A program made the position numbers and the translations under genes. The notes under the pieces were generated by a model that was given only the letters and a program-made list of their open reading frames with translations, was not told where the DNA came from and did no database searches. From positions 69,074 to 133,073 of the forward strand of contig JAXLRM010000008.1 of the NCBI GenBank assembly GCA_046331095.1: a DNA stretch of 64,000 nucleotides. Reading direction: 5' to 3'. Positions within the stretch are counted from its first letter, which is position 1. The number at the start of each line of letters is the position of its first letter. This document shows, piece after piece, positions 2,874 through 60,694 of the stretch. This DNA is from Acidimicrobiia bacterium (GTDB lineage: Bacteria; Actinomycetota; Acidimicrobiia; UBA2766).

Positions 2874-2993
2874 GGCCCCCTCGGTTCCTGAATCGGGAGA
2901 GGCGTCAATCTACTCACCCATGCCGTCGACCTCCGCCACCGAGATCTACCCTGGGGACCCGGTTGCGCGGTCCCCCAGGCTGCGGGACGCATC

Positions 2994-5399: not shown

Positions 5400-5535
5400 G
5401 GCGCAACCGGACACCTGCCTCGGCGTGCGTCGGCACCTACACGACCCGACCCGGAACGGGCGGCGCGGTTCGCAGCCGGGACCGGCTTGCGGGGGACAGA
5501 CCGCCGCGGCTTAGGCTCGGCCGACCAGAGCCGGC

Positions 5536-17858: not shown

Positions 17859-19067
17859 TCACCCGATCAAGTCGCCGGTGGAGTCCGTCGCCGCGAATTC
17901 GGCCCGAACCGCTGCCAGGAGGGCATCGTCGGTAGCGAGGTCGATGACGGTGGCTGCCATCGAGAGGGCCGCGTCGTGGACCGCACGGTCTGCTGCAGGA
18001 GCCGCTGCTGCATCTGCGAAGCCGCGCTGGTGGTTGAGGTACGGCCCCGACTCGATACCGATCATCGGATGTATCGCGGGCACGACCTGGCTCACGTTGC
18101 CCATGTCGGTCGACGATGCCGACTCGGGCCCGATCAACACCTGCGGCACGAACTCACGTCCGAGTCTCTCGGCGTTCGCCTGGTAGGCGCCCGAGAGGGC
18201 ATGGTTGTGCTTCATCTCCCGGTACGCGGCCATCGCAGCGGAGAACTCGACGCTGCAACCAGCTTCCACCACGGTCGACTCGACCTCGGCGCGCAGTCGG
18301 GCGGCCAGGTCCTCGACGTCCAGGTCGGTGCGAGCACGCACGAACCAGTGGCCGGTCGCCTCTTCGGGAACGACGTTCGGGACGTCGCCGCCATGGGTGA
18401 TCACGCCGTGACAGCGCTCCCAGTCACCCATCGGGTGCGCGGCGAGGACCCGGTAGACGTCGACGAGACCGTCGAGAGCGTTGCCGAGACGCGTGCGCGT
18501 CAGAGACGCGTGCGCCGCACGTCCGTGTACGGTCACGACGAGGTCGTTGACAGCGAGTGCAGGCGCTTCGCGGATGTCGAGTGGCGCCGGATGGACCATC
18601 AAGGCCGCGTCGACACCCTCGAAGGCGCCCCGCTCGACCAGGATCGCCTTGCCGCCCACCGCCTCTTCCGCCGGTGTGCCGAGCACGCAGAGGCGCATAC
18701 CGAGCTCCTCGACGAGACCGGCAAGGACGAGCCCCGCCCCCGCCGCGCTCGCTCCGATCACGTTGTGGCCGCACGCGTGGCCTATCCGCGGCAGCGCGTC
18801 GTACTCCGCGCAGATCACGACGTGGGGACCGCTGCCGGAGCCGAGCTCCGCCCGGAACGCCGTCTCGACGTCGTAGGCGTGACGCGTGACGTCGAAGCCT
18901 GCACGTTCGAGGGTGTCGGCGAGGAGGTCGTGCGCGTGGATCTCCTCCATCGCGAGCTCGGGATGGGCATGCAGGTCGTGGCTCAGAGCCACCATCGTCT
19001 CCCCCGCCGCGGCGGCGGCCAGACGTGCACGGTCCTCGAGATCGGATGTGTCGTCGCTCGTGCTCAC
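17859..19067 (-). CDS. M20-family metallopeptidase / amidohydrolase (hippurate hydrolase-like)
   Basis: Peptidase M20D signature (HACGHNV, metal ligands, dimerisation domain), 402 aa. Confidence 0.8.
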   Translation of the reverse strand: MSTSDDTSDLEDRARLAAAAAGETMVALSHDLHAHPELAMEEIHAHDLLADTLERAGFDVTRHAYDVETAFRAELGSGSGPHVVICAEYDALPRIGHACGHNVIGASAAGAGLVLAGLVEELGMRLCVLGTPAEEAVGGKAILVERGAFEGVDAALMVHPAPLDIREAPALAVNDLVVTVHGRAAHASLTRTRLGNALDGLVDVYRVLAAHPMGDWERCHGVITHGGDVPNVVPEEATGHWFVRARTDLDVEDLAARLRAEVESTVVEAGCSVEFSAAMAAYREMKHNHALSGAYQANAERLGREFVPQVLIGPESASSTDMGNVSQVVPAIHPMIGIESGPYLNHQRGFADAAAAPAADRAVHDAALSMAATVIDLATDDALLAAVRAEFAATDSTGDLIG

Positions 19068-20549
19068 GTCGGCGACGCAGTCGTGCGCCGGGTCGCCTCC
19101 TGGCGCAACACCCGGCGTAGCACCTTGCCAGAGCCCGTGTACGGGAGGGCGTCTATGAACCAGACGGCCTTGGGGACCTTGTAGTTGGCGAGATGCTCGC
19201 GGCAGAACGCCTTGAGCCCCTCCGCCGTGGGGACGTGCGGCACGACAGCATCGGTGACGGCGAACGCGACGAGGATATGGCCGTACTCCTCGTCGGGCAC
19301 TCCTACCACCGCCACGTCCACGACCCCGGGGGCCTGCTCGAGGACGCGCTCGACCTCGGCCGGATAGACGTTCTCGCCTCCCGTGACGACCATGTCGTCC
19401 TTGCGATCGGCCACGTAGAGGTATCCATCCGCGTCCATGCGGCCGAGGTCGCCCATCTCGTAGAGGTGCGCGGGTGCGGCAACGGAGCCGAGCGTGGCGT
19501 CCTCGGTGTAACCCGAGAACATCGTTCCGCTCTCGACGACGATCTCCCCGTCCTCACCGGCACCCGCGATTCCCCCGTCCTCACGCGTGATCCGGACACC
19601 GACACCGGGAAGTGGACGCCCCACCGTGCCGGGGTGCGCTGCCATGTCGGCATCGGTGGCGATGCTCACCCATCCTGCCTCGGTGGAGCCGTAGAGGTTC
19701 AGCAGCGTGGGACCGAAGACCTGACGCGCCCGGTCCACGAGCGCGGGCGGCAGCGCCGAGCCCGACACCACGACGTAACGCAGGCAGCCGAGGTCATGGC
19801 GTGCGAGGACCGCGGGATCGAGGTCGAGGATCCGCTTGAGCATCACGGGGACGAGCGCCGCACCGGCCGCGGCATGCGCCGACGCCAGTGACACGAAATC
19901 CTGGGGATCGAAGCGCTCCATCAGCACCTGTGTCCCGCCGACCGCGAGCGCCACTCCCGTCCCGAAGAACCCGAGCGCGTGGTACAGCGGAGCAGGGACG
20001 ACGATGCAGTCCCCCGGCGCGATCGGAACTCGCGCGCAGAAGCCCACCACCGACGACGGATCCGAGGTCTCCAACCGGCGTTCGGCGCCCTTGGGGTGGC
20101 CCGTCGTGCCCGACGTGTGGATCACGAGCGGCGCGTCCTCGTCGCCGCGTGGCGGCTCCGAATCCGGCATAGGAGCCAGAGCCGACTCGTAGTCCTCACC
20201 TCTGACGAGGACCGTGCCGGGGAAGTCGAAGACCCTGTCCACGAAAGCCGGATCGACGATGACGGCCTTCACGTGCTGCTTTGCGAGTAGGCGCTCGACC
20301 TCTTCGGCGTGGAAAACGTGTTGACAGGGATCGGCGACACGCCCGGCGGCGGCGCCAGCCCTCCGACAGCTCGCGGCAGTTCGGGAGGAGGAGGCGCGAG
20401 CCTCCCGCCGGATATCCCTCGGCGTGCAGGACGTGAGCGAGTTGGTTGACCCTTGCGTTGAGCTGCGCATAGCTCAACGAGCCCTGGCTGTCGACGACGG
20501 CCACCCTGTTCGGGTGCGTCGCCGCGCGCAGGCGGAACACGGAGCCCAT
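19064..20549 (-). pseudogene. AMP-dependent acyl-CoA synthetase/ligase with an apparent internal frameshift
   Basis: The N-terminal AMP-binding region (MGSVFRLRAATHPNRVAVVDSQGSLSYAQLNARVNQLAHVL...LLLPNCRELSEGW) is in one frame (ORF 20196..21023). The rest (HVFHAEEVERLL...IHTSGTTGHPKGA...YGSTE...) is in the frame of ORF 19064..20470. The switch lies in a G/C homopolymer-rich stretch around 20300-20365. Confidence 0.55.
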
Positions 20550-20892
20550 CAAGGGACCGCGCTGCGCGAGTGCCCACGCTGTCGCCGGGGTCCGCCACGG
20601 CGGTGGCGCGGACCCGACGGCGACGCACGCCAGGCGCAGCGAGCCGCGCAGCAACTCGTCGGCCGCACGGGCAAGGGAGCGGAACTGATCGGGGAGGATG
20701 CGAGTCGGGTCCACGTCGCGGATGCTAATCCGGAGGCGTCCTGGGGCACCCGGGCACGTGCGGTTCCTGCGTGGCGACGGGCCGCGCGGTCCGTCTCCCG
20801 GACCCGAACGGGCGGCACAGCTACAGCGCGAAGGGGGTACTGCCGATTGGGTGCTGAGGAATCGTTCCCGCTGGGGAGCAACAGGAGCACGC

Positions 20893-21417
20893 TTGCAGCC
20901 GGTCAAGGTGGTGATCGTCGGGCCCTTCGGCGCGGGGAAGACCACGTTCATCCGCACGATCTCGGAGGTCACCGGGGTCTCGACCGATCGCGAGATCACC
21001 GACGCCTCTGGCTTCGGCTCCAAGACCGAGACGACCGTCGCCCTCGACTACGGGCGCATCACCATCGACGACGAGATCGTCCTCTACCTGTTCGGGACGC
21101 CGGGACAGGAGCGCTTCGAGTTCATGTGGGAGGTGGCGAGCCAGGGGATGCTCGGGTTCATCCTCCTGGTGGACTCGTCCCGGCCCGAGACCTTCGGCGA
21201 GGCACGCGGGATCCTCGACTGGTTCCGTAGCGCCGCCGACGGTCCGTACCTGGTCGCCGCCAACAAGACCTCCGATCCCGCTGCCGACGCCGATCGGGTC
21301 CGCACCGGTCTCGGACTCGACGAGCGCGACCACGTCATCCCGACCGACGCGCTCGACCGCGAACAGGTGAAGGCGGCGCTCGTCGAGTTCCTGGAACGGC
21401 GCCTCGTTCACACCTGA
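20893..21417 (+). CDS. Small Ras-like GTPase of the conservon CvnD / MglA-like family
   Basis: VKVVIVGPFGAGKTTFIRTISE (P-loop), LYLFGTPGQERF (switch II), ANKTSD (NKxD). TTG start at 20893 preceded by AGGAGCA. No cvnA/B/C partners are adjacent. Confidence 0.75.
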   Translation: MQPVKVVIVGPFGAGKTTFIRTISEVTGVSTDREITDASGFGSKTETTVALDYGRITIDDEIVLYLFGTPGQERFEFMWEVASQGMLGFILLVDSSRPETFGEARGILDWFRSAADGPYLVAANKTSDPAADADRVRTGLGLDERDHVIPTDALDREQVKAALVEFLERRLVHT

Positions 21418-21432
21418 AGCCCGGCGCCCCAC

Positions 21433-22842
21433 CTACGGACCTGGGAACCACCGGCCAGGTAGCGCCGGCGTCGCGGGAGGAGGCCCTTCGGACTCGTGCC
21501 GTTGCGGGCCGGCCCACTGGTCCACCGCGCAGGTTCCGTCGACGTGAAGCGCTCGGGCACGGCGGCGGCAGGCGTCGGCGAGGAGATCCACCGACATCGC
21601 CTCGAGGTACGGCTCGTAGCGTGACGGCGCCGCGGCGAGACCCCGCGCTGCGACCTGGTACTCCGCGGCCGCACGACGACTGTGGCCTCCACGCTCCAAC
21701 AACGTGGCATTGCAGGCACGCGCGAGCGCGAAGTCGGGGTCGAGGTACAGGACACGCCTGTACGCGTCGACGGCGTCGTCCGCCCCTCCACGATCGGCCA
21801 CGCTGGCCAACACGAAATGGGCCTCGACATGGAACTCGTCGTGGTCGAGCACTGTCCGCGCCGCACGTGCAGCACCGTCGAGCTCGCCGCGCACGAGCGC
21901 CGCCTGCGCCGACGCGAGGGCCTCGCGTGCTTCGACCCTCGTGGTGATCCGGCTCCACACCCGCGCGGCCGCATCCTGCGTGCGCACGACCGATGTGGGT
22001 TCCGGGCCCCCACGACGGTTCCGGCTGTCGGCGGACGGGCGCCTGTAGGCGAACACGTCGCCGAGCTCCACGAGCTCGAGCTCGTGGTCCAGACCCCAGA
22101 GCGACTCGGCGGAACCGAGGAAGAGATGCCCGCCCGGGCGCAGCACGGACGTCAAGTTGGCCACCACCTCCTCGGTGACGGCCTTGTCGAAGTAGATGCC
22201 CACGTTGCAGAACAGGATCACGTCGGCAGGGTCGAAGCTCGGGCAAGGGCGCCGGAGGTTCGCCCGCACGAAGCGCACGCGCTCACGCAGCATCGGTCGC
22301 GCCACGACCCCGTGCCCCCCACCGTGGTCACACGACTCGAACCAGCGCCGGTAGCTCGGCGGAAGGCCGGCCACGGCGGTCGCGGGGTATCGCCCGGCGC
22401 GTGCAACCTCGAGCGCTTCCCGACACCAGTCGACGGCGGTGACCCGCGACTTGGAGTCGCCGAGACGCGACGCCGCGCAGGCCGCCAGCGTCCACGCCTC
22501 CTCGCCCGTGGAGCATCCGGCGCTCACGATGTGCACCGCACCGGTGCGCGCTGCGCACTCGGGAAGGACCGTCGCCTCCAATGCCTCGAACAGCTCCGGA
22601 TGGCGCAGGAACGCCGTCTGGCCGACGGAGACGAGATCGAACAGGGAGTCGACTTCGTGGGGATCGGAGTCCAGCAAGGAGACGTAGCGGTCGAGATCGC
22701 CCCCGCGGGTCAGCGACGCACGGGTGGCAAGTGAGTCCTGCAGGCGCATCCGGCTTCCCACCGGTAGCCGCAGCCCTGTTCGCCGTTCGAGGCTCGCGGC
22801 CGCCTCCGCGACGGGGTCAGACGCCACGGACGGCACCGTCAC
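21433..22842 (-). CDS. cheR: Chemotaxis protein methyltransferase CheR fused to C-terminal TPR repeats (FrzF/WspC-like)
   Basis: CheR N-terminal domain (LERRTGLRLPVGSRMRLQDSL...DSDPHEVDSLF) and SAM-MTase domain (VHIVSAGCSTGEEAWTLA, ILFCNVGIYFD), followed by about 180 aa of TPR-like sequence. The start overlaps the stop of the upstream REC-GAF gene. Confidence 0.8.
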   Translation of the reverse strand: MTVPSVASDPVAEAAASLERRTGLRLPVGSRMRLQDSLATRASLTRGGDLDRYVSLLDSDPHEVDSLFDLVSVGQTAFLRHPELFEALEATVLPECAARTGAVHIVSAGCSTGEEAWTLAACAASRLGDSKSRVTAVDWCREALEVARAGRYPATAVAGLPPSYRRWFESCDHGGGHGVVARPMLRERVRFVRANLRRPCPSFDPADVILFCNVGIYFDKAVTEEVVANLTSVLRPGGHLFLGSAESLWGLDHELELVELGDVFAYRRPSADSRNRRGGPEPTSVVRTQDAAARVWSRITTRVEAREALASAQAALVRGELDGAARAARTVLDHDEFHVEAHFVLASVADRGGADDAVDAYRRVLYLDPDFALARACNATLLERGGHSRRAAAEYQVAARGLAAAPSRYEPYLEAMSVDLLADACRRRARALHVDGTCAVDQWAGPQRHESEGPPPATPALPGRWFPGP

Positions 22843-23842
22843 GCGCCATCTGCTCGTGGAGGCGGGCACTGTCGACCACGGCAGCGAGTGTGTTCTCGAT
22901 GAGCCGCAGCGCACCGAGGTCCTGATCGCCGAAAGCGCCCGGAACGAACGACGCGAGCCCGAGCATCGCGAACGGACGTCCAGCCGACCACAACGGCATG
23001 GACACGAACGTCTGCAATGGTGGGCTTGCGTCCTCGACGACCATCCCGGCGGATTCGAACGTGACCAGACGTGCTTCGGGCACCGGGGCCGGGCGCATCT
23101 CGCTGGGCATCTCGGCAGCCATCTGCGACACGACATCGAGGAGGCGATCCCGGCTCACCGGTCCGACCGGCCGCAGCGCGAACAGGCCCTCCTCGGCGAG
23201 GGCCACGCAACCGACGTCGTAGTGGAGGACGTTGCCCACGATCGAGAGAACCGCGTCCACCGTGTCACCCAGGTCGGTCATGCGGGCACCGACCTCCCCG
23301 ATCTGCTTCACGAGCGTGGACTCGAACAGCTTGCGATCAAGGGTCTCGCAGACCCGCGAGAGGACGTCGGACTCGCTCAGCGACACGGGTCCCACGTCGG
23401 GGCTCAGGTAGTCCGGCTCGCGTCCGGCGACGAGGCGCGTGACGATCTCGAGTAGCTCGTCGGGGCCGAAGTCCTTGGTCACGAACGCCTCTGCGCCCGA
23501 TTCGAGCGCCCAGAACCGATCGGCACTGGCATCACGCCCCGTGAGCATGAGAACCGGGACGTTCGCCGCGGTCCAGTCGTCCTTGAGGAGCCGGCACACG
23601 AGGTAACCCGAGAGCTTGGGCATGGAGATGTCGGTGATGAGCAGATCCGGCCGCGACGAGTAGAAGGTCTGGACGCAGTTGACGCCGTCGGTGGCGGTCA
23701 TGACGCGGAAGCCGCCCGACTCCAGCACACCCCCGACGACGTGCAGGAGCGTCGGCGAATCGTCCGCGACCAGGACCAGCGGTCCACTGCGGCCCTGCGC
23801 ACCCCAGTTCTGCTCTTCCGGGTTCTGCACGTCTCCTGGCAC
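22817..23842 (-). CDS. Response regulator with an N-terminal receiver domain and a C-terminal GAF-like domain
   Basis: REC: LVLVADDSPTLLHVVGGVLESGGF...DLLITDISMPKLSG...KDFGPDEL. The C-terminal 170 aa are GAF-like. Confidence 0.75.
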   Translation of the reverse strand: MPGDVQNPEEQNWGAQGRSGPLVLVADDSPTLLHVVGGVLESGGFRVMTATDGVNCVQTFYSSRPDLLITDISMPKLSGYLVCRLLKDDWTAANVPVLMLTGRDASADRFWALESGAEAFVTKDFGPDELLEIVTRLVAGREPDYLSPDVGPVSLSESDVLSRVCETLDRKLFESTLVKQIGEVGARMTDLGDTVDAVLSIVGNVLHYDVGCVALAEEGLFALRPVGPVSRDRLLDVVSQMAAEMPSEMRPAPVPEARLVTFESAGMVVEDASPPLQTFVSMPLWSAGRPFAMLGLASFVPGAFGDQDLGALRLIENTLAAVVDSARLHEQMARDGAVRGV

Positions 23843-23955
23843 CTCTCTCAGTTGGTCGGCTCAGACCTCGCTCCGGTTGAGCCCCGAATGGGCGAACCCG
23901 GCGACCCCCACCCGGCACACGCCCCGAGGTGGCGCAGCGAACGTTCGGTGGGACA

Positions 23956-26214
23956 TCAAGCGGGGACCATCGATCTCAGCAGCTCCACGAGCTCCACCTG
24001 GTCGAAGTCGGCCTTGGTCACGTAGGCGTCGGCACCGGCGTCCAGACCGCGTCGCCTGTCCTCCTCGCTCGCGAGGCTGGTGAGCATCACGAACGGCACT
24101 GCCTGGCCCCTCCCGCGTAGCGAGCTGCAGAGCTCCACACCGTCCATCCTTGGCATCTGCACATCCGAGACCACGGCATCGAAGCCGGCTTCTGCCTCGT
24201 AGGTCGCGATCGCCTCGGCACCGTCGGCAGCGGTGGTCACGTCGAAACCGGCTGCCTCGAGTATCGATCGGACCATCTCCCGGATAGGTGCGGCGTCGTC
24301 GACGACGAGCACACGTGGCCGTTCGTGGTGCCGCTCGGGCAACGAGGGGCGCGAGGTGGCACCGAGTCGACCCGCAGCGAGCAACGAGGAGGGGTCGAGC
24401 ACCAGGATCACGTCGCCGTTGCCGAGGATGGACGCACCCCCGACGTGACGCACACCGCGTACGAAGGTGCCGAGGTTCTTCACGACGATCTCACGCTGGC
24501 CCACGAGGTCCTCGACCCGCATGGCGAGGCTGCGGCCCGCGCTCGAAAGCACGATCACAGGACCGGAGCCGTCGTCGGGCGCGCCGCTGATCAGGTCGCA
24601 GAGGTCCACGAGCGGCAGCACCTCGCCCCTGAGGTCCACGACACGCTGTCCTGCGACGGTGCGCACGTCGTCCTCGTGCACTTGCACCACCTCGGTGACC
24701 GCGGAGACCGGCAGCGCATAGGTCCGACCGCCGCTCACGACGGTGACACCGACCACGATCGACAGTGTCGTGGGAACAGTCAGCACGAAAGTGGTGCCAC
24801 GACCGGGTTCGGTGTGGACCTCGATGCCGCCCTTGAGGGCGTCGACCGCGTCGCGCACGATGTCGAGGCCGACTCCGCGGCCCGACGTCGTCGTGGACCT
24901 CGGCGCGGTCGAGAACCCAGGACGGAAGAGCAGGCTCCCGAGGTCGGCGGCCGAGATCTCCTCCTCGGCGCTCAACCAGCCTGCGGTGACGCCCCGACGA
25001 CGTACCGCGTCCACGTCGACGCCGCGACCGTCGTCGGCGACCTCGATCACGACCTGCCCCCCACGCTGACGCGCGGTGATGGTCACGGACCCTGCGGGCG
25101 GCTTCCCGGCCGCCTCACGTTCGGCCGGCCCTTCGACACCGTGATCCAGTGCGTTGATCACGAGCGCGCGCAAGGGCTCGGCGATTCGCTCGAGTACCTG
25201 TTTGTCGAGCTCCACGTCGCCGTCGTCGACGACGAGATCGACCTGCTTGGACAGCTCCCGGCAGAGGTCGCGGGCGAGTCGGGGAAGTGGTGCCATCACC
25301 GACGCCGCCGGAAACGTGGCGAGGGCCATAGCCCGCTCCTGCAGCGCCTCGACCTGCTTGCGGCTCGCGTCAGCGATGTCGTCGATGTCGAACGAGAGGA
25401 CCGCGAGCTCGTCGCGCACGTGCCCCAGGAGTTCGACCGCCTGGGCCGCGCGGACGGGATCGGCGCCGTGGTCGAGGCGTCGCATACGCGAGTCGACGCG
25501 ACGGAAGAGATCGCCGAGACGGTCCGCGTGCTCCTTGACCGTCACTTGCCCGATCGTCGACTCGCCGACGGCGTCGATGAGGTCGTACACCTTCGATGTC
25601 TCGAGGCGGACGGTCGCCGACCGGACCGGCCGGACCGGCTGGACCGGATCCGTCGACGGGTCCGGTGCCGGCACCGGCGCCTGGTGCGGCGCTGCAAGGG
25701 GGACCTCGGCGACCGGATCGCGCGTGCCCGGCACGGTCGCCGCACGTTCCGCGGTGGTCTCCGCCGCGTCTGCGCCCGCCTCGGTCGCAGCCCTCGCCGG
25801 AGCGGCCGCCGCGGCCACCTCCCCGAAAGCCTTGCCTGCACGATCCAGATGCGCGCAGATCGCGGTCGACGCCGCGGTGTGGTCGACGCTGCCGTCCTCC
25901 ACGAGCCGGGCAAGGACGTCGCAGGCGTCGAGAAGGACGTCGCAGACTCCCGCAGTGAGAGAGAGGGCACCGTCGCGGAGAGCGACGAGCACCTCCTCCA
26001 TCGCGTGCGCCACATCACAGACGGCGGTGAAGCCGAGCAGCTTGGCCGATCCCTTGATCGAGTGTGCGTCGCGGGAGATGCGCTCGAGTACCGGCGTCGA
26101 GATACCGTCGGTCTCGATCGCGAGGAGCCCCTCGCCCAACGACCCGAGCCGATCGGAGACCTCGCCGCGGAACACCTCGAACAACTCCGGCCTGTCGCCC
26201 CACCGTTGGGTCAC
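23956..26214 (-). CDS. cheA: Chemotaxis histidine kinase CheA with a C-terminal receiver domain (CheA-CheY hybrid, FrzE/WspE-like)
   Basis: HPt (DAHSIKGSAKLLGF), HATPase (GQVVIEVADDGRGVD...GRGVGLDIV), CheW-like domain, then REC (PRVLVVDDAAPIREM...VVSDVQMPRMDGVEL...YVTKADF). GTG start forms a GTGA overlap with the cheW stop at 26211-26214. Confidence 0.85.
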   Translation of the reverse strand: MTQRWGDRPELFEVFRGEVSDRLGSLGEGLLAIETDGISTPVLERISRDAHSIKGSAKLLGFTAVCDVAHAMEEVLVALRDGALSLTAGVCDVLLDACDVLARLVEDGSVDHTAASTAICAHLDRAGKAFGEVAAAAAPARAATEAGADAAETTAERAATVPGTRDPVAEVPLAAPHQAPVPAPDPSTDPVQPVRPVRSATVRLETSKVYDLIDAVGESTIGQVTVKEHADRLGDLFRRVDSRMRRLDHGADPVRAAQAVELLGHVRDELAVLSFDIDDIADASRKQVEALQERAMALATFPAASVMAPLPRLARDLCRELSKQVDLVVDDGDVELDKQVLERIAEPLRALVINALDHGVEGPAEREAAGKPPAGSVTITARQRGGQVVIEVADDGRGVDVDAVRRRGVTAGWLSAEEEISAADLGSLLFRPGFSTAPRSTTTSGRGVGLDIVRDAVDALKGGIEVHTEPGRGTTFVLTVPTTLSIVVGVTVVSGGRTYALPVSAVTEVVQVHEDDVRTVAGQRVVDLRGEVLPLVDLCDLISGAPDDGSGPVIVLSSAGRSLAMRVEDLVGQREIVVKNLGTFVRGVRHVGGASILGNGDVILVLDPSSLLAAGRLGATSRPSLPERHHERPRVLVVDDAAPIREMVRSILEAAGFDVTTAADGAEAIATYEAEAGFDAVVSDVQMPRMDGVELCSSLRGRGQAVPFVMLTSLASEEDRRRGLDAGADAYVTKADFDQVELVELLRSMVPA

Positions 26215-26660
26215 TTCGCCATCCCGAGCCGCTCCTGCAGACCGCTGAGGAACTCCGGTGAGAGCATCACGACCAGGCCCGCTTCGAGTGCGGCGATTCC
26301 CTCGCACCAACGACGCAACAGCTCGGGCAGCGTGTCGGGAGGAGTCATGAGGTCGGCTTCGTCGACGGTCACGACACCATCGACGGCGTCGACGCAGAAC
26401 CCGGCGTCGCAATCGACGTCGCGCATCACCACCAGGCGGCACTTGCGTCCCTTCGGTTCCGAGACCTCGGTCCTTGCTCCGAGGCCGACCGCGATGTCGA
26501 TGACTGCGAGGATCACCCCCCGCAAGTTGGTCACGCCACGCAGCCACACAGGTGACTCGGGCAGCGGCGTAACGCGTGGTGGACGCCTGATCTCACGGAC
26601 TGCGTCGAGCGCTATGGCGAAGCGCTCGGGGCCGATGCTGAACACGAGGTACTCCTGCAA
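26211..26660 (-). CDS. cheW: Chemotaxis coupling protein CheW
   Basis: CheW domain LQEYLVFSIGPERFAIALDAVREI...WLRGVTNLRGVILAVIDI. TTG start at 26660 sits 5 nt downstream of the MCP stop. Confidence 0.75.
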   Translation of the reverse strand: MQEYLVFSIGPERFAIALDAVREIRRPPRVTPLPESPVWLRGVTNLRGVILAVIDIAVGLGARTEVSEPKGRKCRLVVMRDVDCDAGFCVDAVDGVVTVDEADLMTPPDTLPELLRRWCEGIAALEAGLVVMLSPEFLSGLQERLGMAK

Positions 26661-26664
26661 GGCT

Positions 26665-28230
26665 CTACCCCACCCGGAAGCGTCCGAGTGTGCGGCGCAG
26701 TTCCACTGCGAAGCGTCGTACACCGGCAGCCGACTCGGTCGTCGCGCGGCCGGATTCGGCGTGTCGGCGCGTGACGCGCGCAACCTGGGCCACCGCTTCG
26801 ACGACCTGCTCGGACGCAAGCCGCTGCTGTTCGGTCGCGACCTGGATCTCCCGCGAAGCCTTCTGGGTCTCCGCCGCGAACTGATTGATCTCGTCGAGGG
26901 CGTTCCCGGCCTCCACGGCAAGCGAGACATCGGCGTCGACTTCGTTGGCGCCCTCTTCGGTGGCGATGATCGATGCGTTGGTCTCCTCGCGGATGTCTCC
27001 GATCAGGGCCTGCACATCACGAGTCGCGCCAGCAGAGCGTTCGGCGAGCTTGCGGACCTCTTCGGCGACGACGGCGAAGCCACGCCCGTCCTCGCCTGCC
27101 CGCGCGGCCTCGATGGCGGCGTTGAGCGCGAGGAGGTTCGTCTGGTCGGAGAGCTCCCGGCTGAGCTCGAGGATCGTTCCGATCTCCTGGCTGAGCTCGC
27201 CGAGGCGCAGGGTTCGGTCGGCGATGGCGCGGACCCTGTCGGAGATGCGCTGGATGCCTGCTTGGAGCTCGTCGACGGCATGGCTGCCCCGCAGTGTCGC
27301 GGCGGTGGTCTGGTCGGCAAGCTGCGCGACCGACTCCGCCGTCCCCGCGATGGACGCCGCAGTCGCAGCGAGCTCCTCGATGGTGGCGGTCACCTCACCG
27401 ATCGCCGTCGACTGCTGGGTGGACGAGCTCGCCTCCTCCTCGGCCAGTGATGCGAGGCGTTCACCCGCCTCGGCGAGGCGCTCGCCGCCCGCCTGCACCT
27501 GCCCCACGAGCTCGCGCAGGCTCCCCACCATCAAGTCGAAGCCCCCACCGAGCTCGGTGCCGACCGGGTCGGAGAGCGTCGTCGCCGCGGTCTCGTACAC
27601 GACCTCGCGGCGAAGGTCGCCGGCACCGACCGCCGTGAACGCGGCACCGACGGCGGCAGCTCGCTCCTCGGCGGCGATGACGGCATCGCGTGCGACGGCC
27701 GCGGCGGCCTCGGATTCGGCTGCCAGACACGCGACGACGGCGCAAACCGAGAGTACGGCGGCCGCCGCGGCGAGCGCAGGGACGAGAACGGCGGTGAAGC
27801 CATCCGGGCTCGCGCCCGCCGCTCCCACGAGGGTGCCTGCCACGACCACGGCCGTAGCCCCCGAGATCGTCGCCCTCGCCCTCGCGGCGACCACCCCGAC
27901 GGGTACGAGGGCCATCACCCAGGCGCTCGATGCGGGTCCGCCGACGGCCCAAACCGCGGTCGCGGTCCCCAACGCCGCGACACACGCGACGACCGACAGC
28001 ATCACCGTCTCCGCGTCACGGACAGCGAGGGGAGGCACCCAGGGTGACACGGCGATCACCAGCCCTGCCGCTCCGGCGAGCACGCAACCGGTCAGCAGCG
28101 CCGTCACGTGGGTGGCACCGGCACCGGAGAGGAGCGCGGCGACGGCCACGACCGCGACCGTGCCCACCTGGACGGCGCCCCACACGACCGACGACCTTCG
28201 TCTCTGCGCCTCGGCCTCGTGATCCACGTT
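26665..28230 (-). CDS. Methyl-accepting chemotaxis protein with a polytopic (about 6 TM) N-terminal membrane module and no periplasmic sensor domain
   Basis: HAMP plus MA domain ([34 protein letters not shown]). The track ORF extends to 28374, but that extension is a translation of the REP array, so the start was placed near 28230. Confidence 0.8.
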
Positions 28231-28313
28231 CACTCCTCGGGCTCCCAGTACACCTCGACCTTCATCGGCACCCTCCGACGCCGATTTGAGCGCTGACCAG
28301 ACAACCGCACAAC

Positions 28314-29108: not shown

Positions 29109-29265
29109 TCGTCGTGAGCCCTGCCCTTGGGCAGCAGTCACCGTGAGATGCAAGGGAACCGTCCCGGGAGGGTTGCCGATCACGGTGGACTGCGCTATGT
29201 TCCGATCCCGACAAAAGGGATATTCGGTCAGGTTGGACCGATCGTAGGCCGGACTGGGATGGGAC

Positions 29266-29496
29266 ATGAGCTTCTACCCCGTCCCCTGCGCCAACGGGAC
29301 CGCAGACATCGTGGTCGGCAAGTTCGGGACCACGGCCTCGGGCATCCTGAAGGTCGGCACCCTGACGTTCACCGCTGCGAACGCCGGCAAGGCCAACGTG
29401 AAGTTCTCGTCGCAATCTGCAGCCGTCAACCCGGGCACCAGCACCGACATCATCGGGTCCACAGCCGGGGGTGTCTATACGGTCGTCCTTGCCTGA
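29266..29496 (+). CDS. Small hypothetical protein (76 aa), possibly a remnant of a beta-rich secreted domain
   Basis: Codon usage is genome-like (high GC3) and an RBS-like GGATGGGA lies upstream. It sits in a locally lower-GC intergenic island (29110-29500). Confidence 0.4.
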   Translation: MSFYPVPCANGTADIVVGKFGTTASGILKVGTLTFTAANAGKANVKFSSQSAAVNPGTSTDIIGSTAGGVYTVVLA

Positions 29497-33926: not shown

Positions 33927-34769
33927 TCAGTCCTCGGCGCCGGTCTGCAGCCGGTCCAGCAGGTCCTCGTGCAGCTCGGCCGTGGCCGCGGCGACCAAGG
34001 GGACGCGCAAGCCGAGATCGGCGCGCAGGGGCACAGGATCGCCGTTGACATCGGTGACGACTCCACCTCCGGCCTCCACCATGATGGCCCCTGCCGCGTA
34101 GTCGACGACGCGTTCGCCGAAGGGCAGCTCCGGATCCGTGTTCACGTTGACGTACGCGTCGAGGCCGCCGGTGGCGACGAGAGCGAGGTCGAGCGCGGCG
34201 GAACCGAGGACGCGGGGCAGGCGGCACGCCGCGAAGACCTGCCGGGCCCGCTCGAGCGCACACGGATCGGCGGGACGCTGGAGGGCGACGGCGGCGTCTC
34301 CGATCCGTGACACATCGCTCGTACCGGCCCTGAGCCCCCCACGGCTCACACCGAGACCGGCCCAGCCGAACATGTCCTCACCGGTGGCGGCGTTGCGGAC
34401 CAGGCCCCCCACGGCGGTGCCGTCGATGAGGACCCCGATCGACACGGCCCAGTACGGGATGCCTGCGAGGACGTTGTTCGTCCCGTCGACCGGGTCCACG
34501 ACGAGGAGGATCCCCGCTCCGGGTCCGTCACCCCGGCCCTCGACGACACCCGCTTCTTCGGAGCACAGCGTCGCCGAGGGCAGCTCTTCGGCGAGGTACT
34601 CCAGCAGGGCGGCCTCGGCCGCCGCGTCGGCCAGTGCGGTCGTGGTGCCGTCCGCTCCCAAGCCCACTTCGTCGGCCCAGCGTGAGCGGTCCGTCGACTC
34701 GAGCGCGTCGAGAGCGCGGTCCGCGGCTGTGGAGAGCGTGACCGGCCAGTCGACACCGGCGACGACCAT
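33927..34769 (-). CDS. Inositol monophosphatase family protein (SuhB/CysQ-like)
   Basis: IMPase motifs (VVDPVDGTNN, WDxAAG-like region), 280 aa. ATG at 34769. Confidence 0.8.
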   Translation of the reverse strand: MVVAGVDWPVTLSTAADRALDALESTDRSRWADEVGLGADGTTTALADAAAEAALLEYLAEELPSATLCSEEAGVVEGRGDGPGAGILLVVDPVDGTNNVLAGIPYWAVSIGVLIDGTAVGGLVRNAATGEDMFGWAGLGVSRGGLRAGTSDVSRIGDAAVALQRPADPCALERARQVFAACRLPRVLGSAALDLALVATGGLDAYVNVNTDPELPFGERVVDYAAGAIMVEAGGGVVTDVNGDPVPLRADLGLRVPLVAAATAELHEDLLDRLQTGAED

Positions 34770-34786
34770 CGACTCCACGGGCGCGC

Positions 34787-35188
34787 TCAGGCCGAGAAGG
34801 TGACGATGGTGATGGTGCCCAGGAGGAAGAGCCCGCCTACGACGGTGAACAACAAGGCCTTGACCCCGACCCGCAACCGCCGGTTGCGGATGTAGTCCTC
34901 CGAGATGGCCCGCACGCCGATGGCGCCGTGGCTCAACGCCAGCGTGAGCAAGGCCCAGTCGAAGAAGCGCCACAGCGGGTTCGACCATCTCGTCTGCACG
35001 AACAGGTAGTCGGTCTCGACGACGTCGTTGACGATGTGGGTGATCGCGAAGTGCGCCAGGGCCAAGAAGACGAGGATCAGACCCGAGATGCGCATGTAGT
35101 ACCACATGCGCACCTCGGAGCGGTTCGCGACCCGCGTCTGGGCCCCGCCTTCGGTTCCGGTCTCGGTGCTGTCCAGTGTCTGTGCCAC
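34787..35188 (-). CDS. sdhD: Succinate dehydrogenase hydrophobic membrane anchor subunit (SdhD-like)
   Basis: MRISGLILVFLALAHFAITHIV... resembles actinobacterial SdhD, with three TM helices. GTG start at 35188. Confidence 0.7.
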   Translation of the reverse strand: MAQTLDSTETGTEGGAQTRVANRSEVRMWYYMRISGLILVFLALAHFAITHIVNDVVETDYLFVQTRWSNPLWRFFDWALLTLALSHGAIGVRAISEDYIRNRRLRVGVKALLFTVVGGLFLLGTITIVTFSA

Positions 35189-35208
35189 TGATTCCCTCGG
35201 ATCAGGCG

Positions 35209-35592
35209 TCAGAAGACCGGCTTGTGCGTGAAGAACGGCAGCACGATCACGATGCCGCCCGCGACGGTGACGACCGCGGTGATCGCGGCCACGACCCAGG
35301 CAAGCTGCTTCTGGCGCTCCACTGCGGCGTCGAAGAAGTCGACTGCGATGATCCTGAGCCCGTTGAGCGCGTGGAAGACGAGCGCGCCCAGGAGCCCCAC
35401 CTCGAACAGGCGCAGGAGGATGTTGCCGTAGACGGCGTGCACGGTGTCGTAGAGGTGTTCGCTGATCCCCGCGAGCGTGACGTCGACGACGTGGAGGAGC
35501 AGGAACATGAGTACGAGGAAGCCGGTCACCCGGTGCGCCGTGAAGGCCCACATGCCCGTCTTGCCCTTGTAGATCGTGCCTCTGCTCAGCAC
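35209..35592 (-). CDS. sdhC: Succinate dehydrogenase cytochrome b subunit (SdhC-like)
   Basis: MWAFTAHRVTGFLVLMFLLLHV (heme-ligand His region), 127 aa. Confidence 0.75.
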   Translation of the reverse strand: MLSRGTIYKGKTGMWAFTAHRVTGFLVLMFLLLHVVDVTLAGISEHLYDTVHAVYGNILLRLFEVGLLGALVFHALNGLRIIAVDFFDAAVERQKQLAWVVAAITAVVTVAGGIVIVLPFFTHKPVF

Positions 35593-35833: not shown

Positions 35834-38562
35834 CTAGAAGTCGCCGCGCGGGCACGCGGAATCGGCGTGCTCGTCCTCGGACGGCCGAGCGACCCACTCA
35901 ATCAAGCACTTGAAGAGCTGCTCCGCCGTGTAGGGCTTCGTGAGGACGCCGTCCATGCCGGCTTCGATGCACTGCGCGTGCACGTCGGACGTGGCGGATG
36001 CCGTCAGGGCGACGATCGGCAGGTCGTCGCCCGCAGGCCCGGCGCGCAGGGCACGAGAGGCCTCGAAGCCGTCCATGACAGGCATGTGGCAGTCCATGAA
36101 CACGAGGTCGAACTCGGCGGCGGCGACCGCCGTGACTGCGGCGGCGCCATCGGGGACGAGCACCGCTTCGCAGCCGAGCCGCTCGAGCATGCCTGCGGCA
36201 ACCCGCCGGTTCACGGGATTGTCCTCGGCGACCAGGATCCGCATCCCCGCCAAGCTGCCCGCTTGGTCGGCCACCAGCGCGGGCTCGCGCGGCGCCAACC
36301 CGGGTGCCTCCTCCATGACGTGGCGGGTGAAGAACACCCCACCGGGAAGGGGCCCCACGACGGAGGCGACGAGGTCGTCGGTCGCCCCGGTCAGGTACGC
36401 GTCGAAACCGGCATTGCGAGCCGCGGCGGCGTCACCCCGATAGCCCGCCGGCGGCCCTACGAGGACCAACCGGACGTCGGGACAACGATCGCGGACGCGA
36501 CGAGCGAGAGCGCGCGCCTCTTCGGCGATGTCCGCGTCGACGACGGCGACGAGCAATGCGTCGGCGCCGTCGGGCCCGAGGAGGGGCTCTGCGGCGACGA
36601 GGCTCTCGGCGTGTTCGACGAGGACGTGGCCTTCCTCGAGGATCCGACGGCAGCGCGCGATGGTCGCGGTGTCGTTGCCGCAGAGGACTGCGCGCACGGG
36701 AACCCGCCGCGAAGAAGCATCCTCTGGGGTTGCCGCGACCTCGAACGGCACCTCGGCCCAGAACGTCGATCCGGCACCGACCTCGCTCTCGGCACCGACA
36801 CGTCCCCCCATGAGCTCGACGAGCTGACGCGAGATCGCAAGTCCCAGCCCGGTCCCCCCGAAGCGTCGCGTCGTCGACGCGTCCGCCTGGGTGAACTCCT
36901 CGAAGAGGTGGGCGACTCGTTCACTCGCGATCCCGATCCCGCTGTCGACGACCTCGAATCGGATCAGGACCGTGTCCGCCCCGGCGCGAGTCGCCGTTGC
37001 GCGGAGCTCGAGTTGACCCTCCTCGGTGAACTTGAGAGCGTTGGCGCAGAAGTTGTTGAGGACCTGGCGCACCCGACTCGGATCGCCCAGCACGCGTAGC
37101 CCGGCCACGGCTTCGACGTCGAGGACGAAGCCGAGCCCCTTGGACACCGCCTGCACCTCGATGATCCGCGCCGTGTCGCCGAGCAACCTGTGCGGGTCGA
37201 ACGCGATCCGTTCGAGCTCGATCTTGCCGGCCTCGATCTTCGAGACGTCGAGCACGTCGTTGATGACCGACAGCAGCGCCGAGGACGCGTCCCGGGCTGT
37301 CGCGGCGCACTCGCGGGCACTGGCATCGAGACTCTCGTCCAACAAGAGCTCGAGCATCCCGATGACACCGTTGAGGGGGGTCCTGATCTCGTGGCTCATG
37401 TTGGCTAGGAACGTGGACTTCGCGCTGCTCGCGGCTTCGGCGTCGTCGCGCGCCTCCTCGAGAGCGGCGCGGTCGTGCTCCCTCGAGATCTCCGTGCCAA
37501 CCCACTCGGCCATCAGGCGCAACACGTCCTTGTCCGCCGGCCCGAAGGGCGCCGCGAGGGCCGACGTGCTCTGGAAGCTGAGGGTCCCGAAGACCTCGCC
37601 GTTGACCACGACCCTGACGCCCAGGTACGCCTCGGGACCACCGTCACGGTGGGCCGCGTGCGCTGCCCATTGGGAGGCGGATGCGTCGTGGAACGCGAGC
37701 GGCGCCGACGAAGCGATCGTGGTCCGGTCGAACGTCTCGGCCAGCGGCCGCGTCGACCCCTGGAGCGGACCACGGTTGCCGGTGACCACCTCGACGATCT
37801 CGAGGTCGCTGCCCCGTAGGCGAGCCAGGATCCCCGTCTCGGTCCCGAACCGGCGACATCCCATCGCCAGCAGCTCCGACAACCGTCCCCCGAGGTCACC
37901 TTCCGACGTCGACAGGGAATACAGACCCCTGACGGTGCTCTCGTTGCGGCGGAGCTGACGCTCGATGGCCTTGGTCTCGCTGACGTCGCGGAACACGATC
38001 GCGGCGCCGGTCGGGACACCGTCCTCCACGATCGGGCTCATCTGGAAACTGACCTCGACGATGGAGCCGTCCTCGTGGACGAAACGTGCGTCGTCGGCAC
38101 GTGCGACCTGCGAGCCGCGCAGGACCTCGGCGAGCATCTCGTAGGCGGCATCCTGCTCGGTCGGCCCGAGGACGCCGAAACCGAGCAGCTCGAGAGCAGG
38201 GCGTCCGAGTGCCTCGCTCTGGAGCCTCCCCAACAGCCGCGCCCCTTCGGGATTCATCGAGACGACGGTGCCCTCGGCGTCGAGCACCAACAGTCCCTCG
38301 GCCAGGGACGTGATGATCGTCCGCAGCTTGTCGCGCTCTGCCGCCAAGCGGCTGGCCGACGAACGGCGCAGATCCTCGTACAGCGAGGTCATCTCCTCGG
38401 AGGAGATCTGCATGGACCGCTCCATCGTGTAGCGGTCCTGATCGAACTGGGTGTACGCACGGTCGAGCCGCCCGAGCAGAGCGCGCCACGCCTCGATCGA
38501 GGGCGCTTCGTCCGGACCGAGTCCGTGCTTCCGGAGCTGCCTCCTGAGCAGCGGGTGTGTCA
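35834..38562 (-). CDS. Hybrid sensor histidine kinase (PAS-GAF-HisKA-HATPase-REC-REC)
   Basis: HisKA ([22 protein letters not shown]), HATPase ([18 protein letters not shown]), and two receiver domains (the last one [15 protein letters not shown]...[13 protein letters not shown]). ATG at about 38562. The upstream part of the track ORF overlaps the FIST gene and was rejected. Confidence 0.85.
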
Positions 38563-38616
38563 TGCGCCGGCCGTCCTCCGAACGGGGTGGGCCACGATGG
38601 ACGGTCCGGGGCGCCG

Positions 38617-39759
38617 TCAGCCCTCGGTGATCGCCGTGATCGTCATCGTCTGGTTGTGGAGGTCGCACGTGCCGTCGGTCAGCGGCGACAGCTCGCCATA
38701 GGAGTAGAAGCCGATCTGGTCGGCCGCAGGCCCGGCCACTTCGAGCGTCGCCTCGATCTCGTCCTCGGTCCGCTCGCCGAGAACGAGGCGACGACCGACG
38801 CAACTGATGGCGATGACGAGGGCGCCGCCCGACTCCAGTGCCGGTGTGCCCGACACCCCGCGCTCGGCAGCACACCCGGCGCCGTCCACGAGGCGGTCGA
38901 AGTTGGCGCGCATGAGTTGGGCGCGGTAGCCGGTCGGGATGTCGCCGGCGAAGGTCATGGACCGCTGCCCCTCGTCGACCGCGAGGATCGTGCGCACGAA
39001 GGAGTTCCGATCGGATTCGCCGGCCCGCAACGACAGCGGGAACAACAACGCGGACCCGGGGAGCTCCTCCGCCCTCTCGCCGAGGTACTTCTTGTAGAGA
39101 TCGAGGGCGGGCATCCCGTCGAGCTCGTAGAGGACGTTGTCCTCGGACCGAGTGACGGTGCGTTCCGGACCGAAGATGTCCCAGCCCCCGCGCGAGCCGT
39201 GCCCGAAGTGGACTCGGTTGCCGTAGAAGCCCACCGCGGTCGCCCACCCCGTCATCGGTTTGCCGTCGTGGACGACCCAGGTCCTCTCGAACCGGTCGCC
39301 GTCACCGGCGAGGCCGCCGGTCACGACCACGTCCTGATCGAGAACGGAGTTCACGCCGGCCGCCAGGGCACTGCCGTTGACGTTGAGCCCGTCCGACAGG
39401 ACGAAGACGGCGCGCAGGTCGTCGGAGTCGAGCTGCCGGGCGATCGACTCTCCAGTCGCGAAGGAGGCGTGCGCGTCGGCGACCGGAGATGCCGCGAGGT
39501 TCAGATCCGAATGCTCGAACAGCGCCACGGCGACGACGAGGGAATCGTCGTGGAGTTGGTCCCCGCATATCTCGCCTGCGGTAGAGCAGCCGATGATCCG
39601 CGACTGCGGGTAGGCGTCGCAGAGCTGCGCCACCGGCCCCGGCTCGTCCATGTACCCCGCGCCGCCGAAGACGACCACGAGGGTCCGCGGCGAGTCGAGC
39701 TCGGGAAACGTCGCGGACCAACCCGACGACGGGTGGTACTGAACCGTCTGAACCTGCAC
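38617..39759 (-). CDS. FIST-domain sensory protein
   Basis: FIST N and C domains ([14 protein letters not shown]..., FYSYGELSP). GTG start at 39759 with GGAGG 10 nt upstream. Same strand and adjacent to the hybrid kinase. Confidence 0.8.
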
Positions 39760-39869
39760 GTCAGCATGCCTCCGCACACAGGGCCCCGTAACGGCACGCG
39801 GGACCGTCTTGTGTGTATCGACACGTACGGCGCCTGGTTGAGAACGCCTTGGAGCGGCCCTGATGCGAG

Positions 39870-40172
39870 TCAGCCGAGGTCGACGACCTCGAACGCGAGG
39901 ACCTCCGAGCCGGTGCCGACCGGGCCCCCTCCGGCCGACTGGCCATGACCGCGCCCGAACGCGCTGCTCGACATCCACCCCTCGAAGGACTCCCTGGAAT
40001 CCCAGTGCGTCACGACGAAGTAGGCATCCCTGCCGTCCGCCGGACGAAGCAGCTCGAAACCCTCGAATCCCGGCTGCTCGTCGACCTCGCCGGCGCGGGC
40101 TGCGAAGCGCTTCTCGAGTTCCGGTCCGGCCTCGCCTGGCACGGTGATCGCGTTGACGACTACGTAGCTCAT
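39870..40172 (-). CDS. Antibiotic-biosynthesis-monooxygenase (ABM) domain protein
   Basis: MSYVVVNAITVPGEAGPELEKRFAAR...FVVTHWDSRESFEGWMSSSAF is a typical about 100-aa ferredoxin-like ABM fold. Confidence 0.7.
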   Translation of the reverse strand: MSYVVVNAITVPGEAGPELEKRFAARAGEVDEQPGFEGFELLRPADGRDAYFVVTHWDSRESFEGWMSSSAFGRGHGQSAGGGPVGTGSEVLAFEVVDLG

Positions 40173-40197
40173 GTGCGCTCTCCGTGTCGGGTGAGGC

Positions 40198-46119: not shown

Positions 46120-46122
46120 AGG

Positions 46123-46698
46123 CTATCCCCACGGTCCGCTCGGGCCTCGCCCGAGCCAGGCAAAACAGCGCCCACCGAGCCACTCCGACGTGATGACCGC
46201 GAACCCGGCCTGTCGGGCCAATCCGCCGATGTGGTCGGCGTCGACACACGCCCACGGAGCGCCGTCACGCAGGACGCGCCGGACCAGACCCGAACCGGGC
46301 GGCTCGACCTCCACGAGGACGACCCCGTCGGGGCGCAACAGCTCGTGGACCCGCGCCAGCAGCGAGTGTGGGTCGCCGCCGATGCCGATCGAGCCGTCGA
46401 GCACCACTGCCGACGCCCAGTCCCCCTCCCCGGGGAGGGGATCGAAGACGCATCGGTTGAGGACCGGCACGCCCCTGCGGAAGGCCGCACGCACGGCGAT
46501 GGGAGCGACGTCGATGCCCAGCGCCATCGTCCCCTCCCGGATGAGTGCCTCGACGAGACGCCCCGGCCCGCATCCGACCTCGAGGACTGGCCCGGCGAGT
46601 CTCGCGAGGAGGGCGAGCTCGACACGGTCCGCCGTGCCGAACCAGCGGCTCGACGCGACCGGACCGAACTCCGACACCAGTGCCTGCAGGGGCGCCAT
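46123..46698 (-). CDS. SAM-dependent methyltransferase (class I)
   Basis: Motif I VLEVGCGPGRL and a downstream acidic loop. ATG at 46698, about 192 aa. Confidence 0.7.
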   Translation of the reverse strand: MAPLQALVSEFGPVASSRWFGTADRVELALLARLAGPVLEVGCGPGRLVEALIREGTMALGIDVAPIAVRAAFRRGVPVLNRCVFDPLPGEGDWASAVVLDGSIGIGGDPHSLLARVHELLRPDGVVLVEVEPPGSGLVRRVLRDGAPWACVDADHIGGLARQAGFAVITSEWLGGRCFAWLGRGPSGPWG

Positions 46699-46706
46699 GG
46701 CGGGGC

Positions 46707-50703: not shown

Positions 50704-50818
50704 GGCAGCCATCCTGCGCGCCATTCGCGACACGGACCTTTCCCAGTCCTTTCGATTCTCGAAACTGTCGGGCCGGACCTGCGTAGGTTGCGGGCCCCTT
50801 CCCTACCGTGTCCTCCGG

Positions 50819-60631: not shown

Positions 60632-60694
60632 GTGCACCTCCTCGCGCGCCTTCACGCGCGCGTCACGGTGCAACAGGACGGGCGGCAGCGCAGT

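Follow-up and report, generated by a model that had tools for sequence, protein, structure and literature searches.

Most of what is known about chemosensory pathways with non-flagellar functions comes from a few models in Proteobacteria and cyanobacteria, and each such pathway is set apart by its output. In Actinobacteria such alternative cellular function (ACF) systems are rare; one survey recorded them in 6 of about 500 genomes (PMC10746217). The current work concerns a five-gene chemosensory (che) cluster, and a small GTPase gene beside it, in a stretch of 64,000 nt from an Acidimicrobiia bacterium (contig JAXLRM010000008.1, positions 69,074 to 133,073). This whole stretch is called the window, and statements on absence from it apply to these 64 kb. 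The cluster lies on the minus strand (21433-28233) and encodes a methyl-accepting chemotaxis protein (MCP), CheW, a CheA fused to a receiver domain (CheA::REC), a receiver-GAF protein (REC::GAF) and a CheR with C-terminal tetratricopeptide repeats (TPRs). Judged from domain architecture, the five genes probably constitute one chemosensory pathway of a non-flagellar, ACF-like type, from which the GTPase would be separate.

In the predicted architecture of its kinase and methyltransferase, the cluster is closest to the Frz system of Myxococcus xanthus and the Wsp system of Pseudomonas, and it fails the defining features of both. Frz shares with it a CheA::REC (FrzE), a TPR-bearing CheR (FrzF), a CheW, a single dedicated receptor and an output other than CheY. 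However, the Frz receptor FrzCD is cytoplasmic and has no transmembrane (TM) segments, whereas the receptor of the window is polytopic, with about six. Frz also contains a CheB (FrzG) and the dual-receiver protein FrzZ, while the window has no CheB and a REC::GAF output. No gliding or pilus genes occur in the window, and a link to an MglA-type GTPase, as in Frz, is not supported because the GTPase keeps its place in a relative that has no che genes. Wsp likewise possesses a CheA::REC (WspE), a membrane receptor and a CheR with TPRs (WspC), and its output too is a dedicated response regulator of several domains, but this regulator, WspR, is a REC-GGDEF protein and not a GAF protein. A CheB (WspF) and two CheW proteins belong to Wsp, against none and one here, and no GGDEF domain was found in the window ORFs (open reading frames) scanned. 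The cyanobacterial Tax/Pix systems with PATAN-REC outputs are comparable as chemosensory systems whose non-CheY receivers act on polarity or pilus machinery, and a PATAN gene is what the sister-clade GTPases described below usually have beside them. Unlike these systems, the window contains no PATAN or pilus genes, and its receptor has no GAF or photosensor domain.

Architecture and conservation of the che cluster

The window has about 70% GC throughout, and at such high GC raw ORF lists are full of spurious frames. Genes were called by GC content at third codon positions (GC3), which yielded one coherent gene set, and inspection of start sites gave the final coordinates (Table 1). All six genes were found where a preliminary description of this DNA had placed them; Pfam confirmed each domain that it named, and NCBIfam agreed at the family level. 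Its polytopic MCP without a sensor domain agrees with the hydropathy profile given below. That description also had all junctions overlapping or abutting, which holds for three of the four. Between cheA and the REC::GAF gene there is a spacer of 113-125 nt (18-113 nt in relatives), in which no conserved element, Rfam match, or promoter or terminator pattern was found. Promoter, terminator and Rfam scans of the whole cluster likewise detected nothing within or between the genes.

Table 1. Positions of the che genes, the cheA/REC::GAF spacer and the GTPase gene in the window
Feature	Position	Strand	Length	Remarks
MCP	26665..28233	-	~522 aa	Start uncertain, 28233 or 28227 (GTG)
CheW	26211..26660	-	149 aa	TTG start 4 nt past the MCP stop; from Pfam and start-site analysis
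CheA::REC	23956..26214	-	752 aa	Start overlaps the cheW stop (GTGA)
Spacer cheA/REC::GAF	23831..23955	-		Sole non-abutting junction
REC::GAF	22817..23830	-	337 aa	Putative pathway output
CheR with about three C-terminal TPR motifs	21433..22827	-	464 aa	Start overlaps the REC::GAF stop by 11 nt
MglA-family small GTPase	20893..21417	+	174 aa	TTG start; convergent with cheR

The kinase carries Hpt (1.4e-14), HATPase_c (1.6e-20), CheW (2.6e-24) and Response_reg (4.9e-26) Pfam domains on one protein. The order is an Hpt domain with the HxxKG motif, an Ala/Pro-rich linker, a divergent dimerisation hairpin, a HATPase domain with intact N, G1, F and G2 boxes, a single CheW-like P5 domain and the C-terminal receiver. 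A 100%-identical 752-aa protein exists in the databases, and its 90% cluster also holds MFN8106096.1 from an Acidimicrobiia metagenome-assembled genome (MAG). CheR was identified by Pfam (CheR, 9.3e-36) and by NCBIfam models for CheR and TPR. About three TPR-like repeats can be read in its C-terminal extension, in which the Pfam TPR_16 match is sub-threshold (E 5.9e-5, 23.9 bits against a cut-off of 32.7); TPR matches are also present in the CheR orthologs of L081-L083, L087, L088 and L090.

The receptor matches MCPsignal (1.4e-39). Its hydropathy profile shows about six hydrophobic segments in residues 14-172, leaving no room for a periplasmic domain, and they are followed by a HAMP-like linker (AVGAGDL...), which gets no Pfam score. 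The signalling hairpin extends for exactly 141 residues (20.1 heptads) between its tip Glu and the C-terminus, and the N-terminal arm matches, giving about 20 heptads per arm. MCP orthologs end in an identical RF(R/K)V with no tail and no C-terminal pentapeptide, and their EE and QQ methylation-type motifs are conserved. CheW (Pfam CheW, 2.2e-26) has orthologs of 144-163 aa. Receptors of class 40H are paired with ACF systems (PMC10746217), and the arm length seen here fits this class, by length only. CheA::REC, a CheR with TPRs, a receptor of 40H length that has no pentapeptide and a non-CheY output together bear out the initial view that this is a non-canonical operon of the Frz/Wsp kind.

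The receiver of REC::GAF was detected by Pfam (2.5e-24), and its residues D23, D24, D67, T97 and K119 are invariant in an alignment of 36 family members. The receiver is joined by a strongly conserved linker helix (RVC..LDRKLFE) to a divergent GAF domain, whose Pfam scores are sub-threshold (GAF_2, 26.7 bits against 28.6; GAF, 21.4 against 22.4). This weak call is backed by GAF-family matches precomputed on homologues (PF13185, PF01590, PF13492) and by the AlphaFold model (predicted local distance difference test, pLDDT, 90.5). The best PDB match of the model in Foldseek is the REC-GAF tandem of the dual-sensor kinase 6ob8 (E 5e-14), with a TM-score of only about 0.34, presumably because the domain orientations differ; a PDB sequence search gave no significant match for the GAF part by itself. 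A bilin-binding cyanobacteriochrome domain, considered in view of the best PDB match, was rejected, as the family alignment contains no conserved Cys in its GAF part. The protein has no enzymatic, catalytic or DNA-binding domain.

In every related locus, REC::GAF is located downstream of cheA, directly in most and after cheB in L088. The family comprises 435 protein clusters (E <= 1e-10), with metagenomes as the source of nearly all best matches. None of 80 loci of other lineages fetched with the CheA query contains the GAF part. Because it is absent from these loci and kept in Acidimicrobiia and in the cultured Acidothermaceae B102, REC::GAF is best regarded as a conserved, lineage-specific partner of CheA::REC. 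A full-text search for REC-GAF and CheY-GAF, judged by titles and abstracts, returned no experimental work on a chemosensory REC-GAF output.

Orthologous context was taken from metagenome contigs; a scan of GTDB species representatives with CheA gave no close relative, and its best matches (30-41% identity) came from other phyla. On the contigs, the order MCP-CheW-CheA::REC-REC::GAF-CheR was found in eight further distinct loci with CheA identities of about 42-75% (L081-83, L084, L085/86, L087, L090, L091/92, L093). No CheB was found in the nine locus types of this kind, the window included, which span CheA identities of about 42-100% and contain no frameshifts. A distant Acidimicrobiia locus (L088, 9520-16619; CheA 43%) has the order CheW-CheA::REC-CheB-REC::GAF-CheR::TPR-CheW and no adjacent MCP. 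B102 possesses CheW, MCP, CheA::REC (36% identity) and REC::GAF, and no CheR. In other phyla, CheB adjoins cheA in 26 of about 28 loci with full-length CheA (L001-L028; mostly CheA::REC). Because CheB is present in L088 and these 26 loci and absent from the loci of the window type, its loss is best read as a derived trait of the branch of the window, and the combination of a missing CheB with a retained CheR as specific to this Acidimicrobiia branch. A horizontally transferred island was rejected as an origin of the cluster: GC is flat at about 0.70 across it, and the same neighbourhood is found in relatives down to 43% CheA identity.

In L087 (5759-7270) and L090 (14168-15703), a second, divergent MCP paralog lies just past the His_Phos gene, beside a protein of 430-465 aa that has no Pfam match. 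The window has neither of the two; the only ORF between its His_Phos and guaA genes encodes 82 aa (29248-29496).

The gene packing, domain content, motifs and gene order suggest a possible course of signalling. The six-TM receptor, having no periplasmic domain, would sense a membrane or cytoplasmic cue, and its signal would pass through the HAMP-like linker to the signalling hairpin of roughly 40 heptads. CheW would couple the receptor to CheA::REC. The kinase may autophosphorylate on the Hpt histidine and pass the phosphate to the separate REC::GAF protein, and the receiver fused to it would probably act internally as a sink or regulator, as that of FrzE does. CheR, with its TPRs, may methylate the conserved Glu/Gln pairs of the receptor. 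With the CheB of the cluster lost, adaptation would be one-way and slow, or a methylesterase would be encoded elsewhere. Since REC::GAF has no enzymatic or DNA-binding domain, it would most likely act by phosphorylation-controlled protein-protein contacts or by ligand binding to GAF.

The locus would define a subtype specific to Actinomycetota, with REC::GAF as the constant partner of CheA::REC. One Acidimicrobiia branch of this subtype, which keeps CheR and has dropped CheB, may offer a natural case of a receptor array with methylation but no dedicated demethylation, and may also serve as a case for what a GAF-domain output does in a che system.

The neighbouring MglA-family GTPase

Groups 2-5 of the MglA family are marked by GTPGQ, which does not have the canonical Asp, and by Thr-Thr instead of Arg-Thr in G2; CvnD belongs to group 2, in which G4 is NxFD, and orphan members with no coupled MglB/Roadblock are on record (PMC4316618, Wuichet and Sogaard-Andersen). 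The GTPase of the window (Pfam ATP_bind_1, 5.1e-17; Ras, 4.9e-6) is 100% identical to MFN8106093.1 from an Acidimicrobiia MAG. Its motifs are GPFGAGKTT in G1, TT in G2 (ETTVALDYG) and GTPGQ in G3 (LFGTPGQERF), and the GTPGQ and TT residues are invariant in the clade alignment. In G4, the Acidimicrobiia clade has an invariant NK, and the Asp of NKxD is not conserved (ANKTSD in the window). In a PDB sequence search the matches were weak and of the Arf/Rab kind only; the best 60 of 98 (E 0.01) did not include MglA. By its motifs, the GTPase is assigned to the MglA family. It resembles the PATAN-coupled members of groups 2-5 in G2, G3, length and identity, and differs from them in having no PATAN or Roadblock/MglB gene nearby and in the unconserved Asp of NKxD.

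The preliminary description had called this protein an orphan of the CvnD/MglA type; the assignment to MglA is supported by GTPGQ and TT, and the assignment to CvnD was rejected. With Streptomyces CvnD the protein shares the superfamily, GTPGQ, TT and the NCBI label 'ATP/GTP-binding protein'. A true conservon member (L098), however, is 44% identical, carries VNRFD as G4 and an insertion between G1 and G2, and is preceded by kinase-like, Roadblock and DUF742 genes, whereas the window protein has neither NxFD nor the insertion and no cvnA, cvnB or cvnC gene occurs in the window. A CvnD that has lost CvnA/B/C is also at odds with the position of the protein, which clusters beside PATAN-coupled GTPases and not with the conservon.

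The closest outside relatives (51-62% identity) are from Anaerolineae and Coriobacteriia, where the GTPase gene directly follows a PATAN (PF14332) gene. A metagenome scan with the GTPase alignment gave at least 600 matches, and the matches listed were all of the PATAN-type sister clade; among 80 sister-clade loci drawn from it, a PATAN gene lies upstream in 72, and the upstream sequence is too short in most of the other eight. In a neighbour-joining (NJ) tree, the Acidimicrobiia GTPases form one clade, sister to the PATAN type, and neither the conservon protein nor those of Thermus belong to these two. MglA of M. xanthus was included in the alignment and the tree as a rooting aid only. Upstream of the window GTPase there is a 178-nt divergent spacer and then an AMP-binding gene, with no PATAN. 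No Robl_LC7 match was obtained with Pfam in the neighbouring genes, and a Roadblock seed found no tblastn match in the window.

The PATAN-GTPase pair is very widespread in Anaerolineae, Coriobacteriia and Thermus (L094-L097, L099, L100-L179). In Coriobacteriia it is accompanied by Roadblock and a type IV pilus cluster; in Anaerolineales a REC-GGDEF gene and the gene of a multi-GAF kinase of 1956 aa come after it; and in Thermus the order is DUF4388 (PATAN), GTPase, Roadblock and a protoglobin gene.

The GTPase, the che cluster and alternative explanations

The convergence of the GTPase with the 3' end of the operon was correctly described beforehand, and 15 nt separate the stop codon of the GTPase from that of cheR (given earlier as 16 bp). 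As the GTPase and the che genes are convergent, they are not co-transcribed. In every che-bearing Acidimicrobiia locus examined, the GTPase lies 15 nt to about 3 kb from cheR, even in L091/92, with four unrelated genes in between and different flanks, and in L093, where the flanks have also changed. Three loci (L180-L182), which represent one lineage seen in three samples, contain no che genes and have the order CtaA, GTPase, His_Phos, a 432-aa gene, guaA, IMPDH-like, ... NUDIX ... dTDP-sugar isomerase. Their GTPase is intact, 54% identical to that of the window and inside the same clade of the NJ tree. No che remnants were found in the 450-nt spacer between GTPase and His_Phos of L180, exactly the two genes between which the che cluster of the window is located. 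Identity of guaA to the window is 76% in L087, 73% in L180 and 64% in L088, which puts the che-less lineage no further away than one that bears che genes; judged by this single marker, the simplest reading of the L180 lineage would be that it lost the cluster and kept the GTPase. In L088 the GTPase (18709-19299, minus strand) reads GMRAQ instead of GTPGQ and has lost both TT and NK, which suggests a pseudo-GTPase.

The juxtaposition had been proposed as possibly functional on the model of Myxococcus, and retention of the GTPase at this position in che-less relatives had been named as an observation that would refute it. L180-L182 supply this observation, with an intact GTPase in the same neighbourhood, and the decayed GTPase of L088, beside a che cluster that is kept, points the same way. 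A pathway in which the che proteins signal to the GTPase, as with Frz, RomR and MglA, is therefore unlikely. In such a pathway, phosphorylated REC::GAF would serve as a GTPase-activating protein, a guanine nucleotide exchange factor or an effector, in place of the PATAN/Roadblock partner. It would agree with the constant proximity of the GTPase to the end of cheR, with the missing PATAN upstream in the Acidimicrobiia clade and with the action of Frz on MglA through a response regulator (PMC3441718). The literature also describes PATAN-REC regulators as outputs of cyanobacterial chemotaxis-like systems. The convergent orientation stands against it, however, as does B102, where CheA::REC and REC::GAF occur with no GTPase within 10 kb. 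No window-type GTPase lies within 10 kb in the 80 loci of other lineages found with CheA (about 28 with full-length CheA), and no MCP, CheW or CheR was found in the 80 GTPase loci. GAF belongs to the same broad fold group in SCOP as the Roadblock and longin GTPase platforms. A more specific form, in which the GTPase exchanged its PATAN/Roadblock regulators for che input and phosphorylated REC::GAF binds it and sets its nucleotide state, is quite improbable. If true, it would represent an independently evolved, physically compact equivalent of Frz, RomR and MglA within a Gram-positive phylum; the connection would be facultative, and the che-less L180 lineage and L088, with its degenerate GTPase, would have lost it secondarily. 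Because all che-bearing loci share the wider guaA...uvrD neighbourhood, the adjacency is most likely inherited gene order. The GTPase is probably a separate MglA-family switch of a conserved neighbourhood, not obligately tied to che, and this negative result stops the Frz-MglA analogy from resting on adjacency alone.

For the che cluster itself, an ordinary flagellar chemotaxis system with its CheY, CheB and flagellar genes outside the 64-kb window was weighed against the ACF-like pathway and is very unlikely. Acidimicrobiia is a basal actinobacterial class, 41-91% of species in such classes have flagellar clusters, and the lineage containing Acidimicrobiia is reported with the F5 che class (PMC10746217). 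F5, however, is described with the gene order AW...BR, 38H receptors and a CheA that contains a further CheW domain (PMC10746217). CheA::REC, the TPR-bearing CheR, a REC::GAF in the place of CheY and a single-receptor operon are all unlike F5, and the CheA of the window has one CheW domain and a receiver. Related Frankiales CheA proteins are labelled FrzE-like, 'Gliding motility regulatory protein' or WspE-like by annotation pipelines, and no motility gene was found within 10 kb in 12 related loci. Within the window, the initial statement that methylesterase, CheY, CheZ and flagellar genes are missing was upheld: a Pfam scan of about 50 ORFs, covering the window outside 612-2205, 34141-35209, 46122-47147 and 54969-56806, detected no CheB, CheY, CheZ, flagellar, pilus, Roadblock, PATAN or DUF742 genes, and tblastn with the CheB, Roadblock, PATAN, PilB and PilC seeds of relatives gave no match. 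That the operon is a decaying remnant, non-functional after the loss of CheB, is highly improbable. The CheB and second CheW of L088 are indeed missing, and the frameshift in the neighbouring AMP-binding gene points to defects in the assembly or the genome. On the other hand, the five ORFs are full length with intact catalytic and phospho-acceptor motifs, the set is kept free of frameshifts in the nine locus types that have no CheB, and the receptor methylation motifs are conserved.

Several points weigh against the view of one ACF-like pathway with a separate GTPase. The GAF and TPR Pfam scores of the window lie under the curated cut-offs. The ACF-like class is proposed from domain architecture, and the putative 40H class of the receptor from arm length only. 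Phosphotransfer to REC::GAF is inferred from adjacency alone. CheB, CheY or flagellar genes may lie beyond the 64 kb, many Acidimicrobiia being flagellated (PMC10746217). Finally, despite the changed flanks in L091 and L093, no more than about 3 kb separates the GTPase from cheR in any che-bearing Acidimicrobiia locus, which leaves some small likelihood of a facultative link.

Other features of the window

The cluster is located in a housekeeping neighbourhood; Pfam identified rpsI, glmS, tsaD/E, groES/EL, an IMPDH-family gene, guaA, sucCD and uvrD/pcrA among the ORFs scanned, along with two ordinary two-component systems. The AMP-binding (acyl-CoA ligase-like) gene upstream of the GTPase (19064-20714, minus strand) is split by a frameshift near 20330-20360: residues 1 to roughly 118 are read from 20714 in one frame, and the remainder, down to 19064, in another. 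Its orthologs are intact (540-560 aa), and the copy in the window is an assembly error or a pseudogene.

Tandem paralogs of about 800-835 aa (measured stop to stop) at 2892-5399 and 5515-7926 on the plus strand combine AA_permease_2 with an OB-fold of the tRNA_anti-codon type (PF01336) at the C-terminus, which is unusual for a membrane permease. On the minus strand at 35834-40197, a FIST-domain gene, present in the che-less L180 too, is directly upstream of, and apparently coupled to, a hybrid kinase of about 1150 aa with the order PAS-GAF-HisKA-HATPase-REC. Between 46000 and 58000, GC reaches 0.72-0.75 and frames overlap; this region contains a radical SAM/SPASM gene (48992-50530), a GT2 glycosyltransferase gene (50008-50802) and a plus-strand ORF of 556 aa (50477-52147) that has no Pfam match. 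A glmS ribozyme (Rfam RF00234, 68.6 bits) was identified at 60703-60845 on the minus strand, ahead of glmS (58790-60760).

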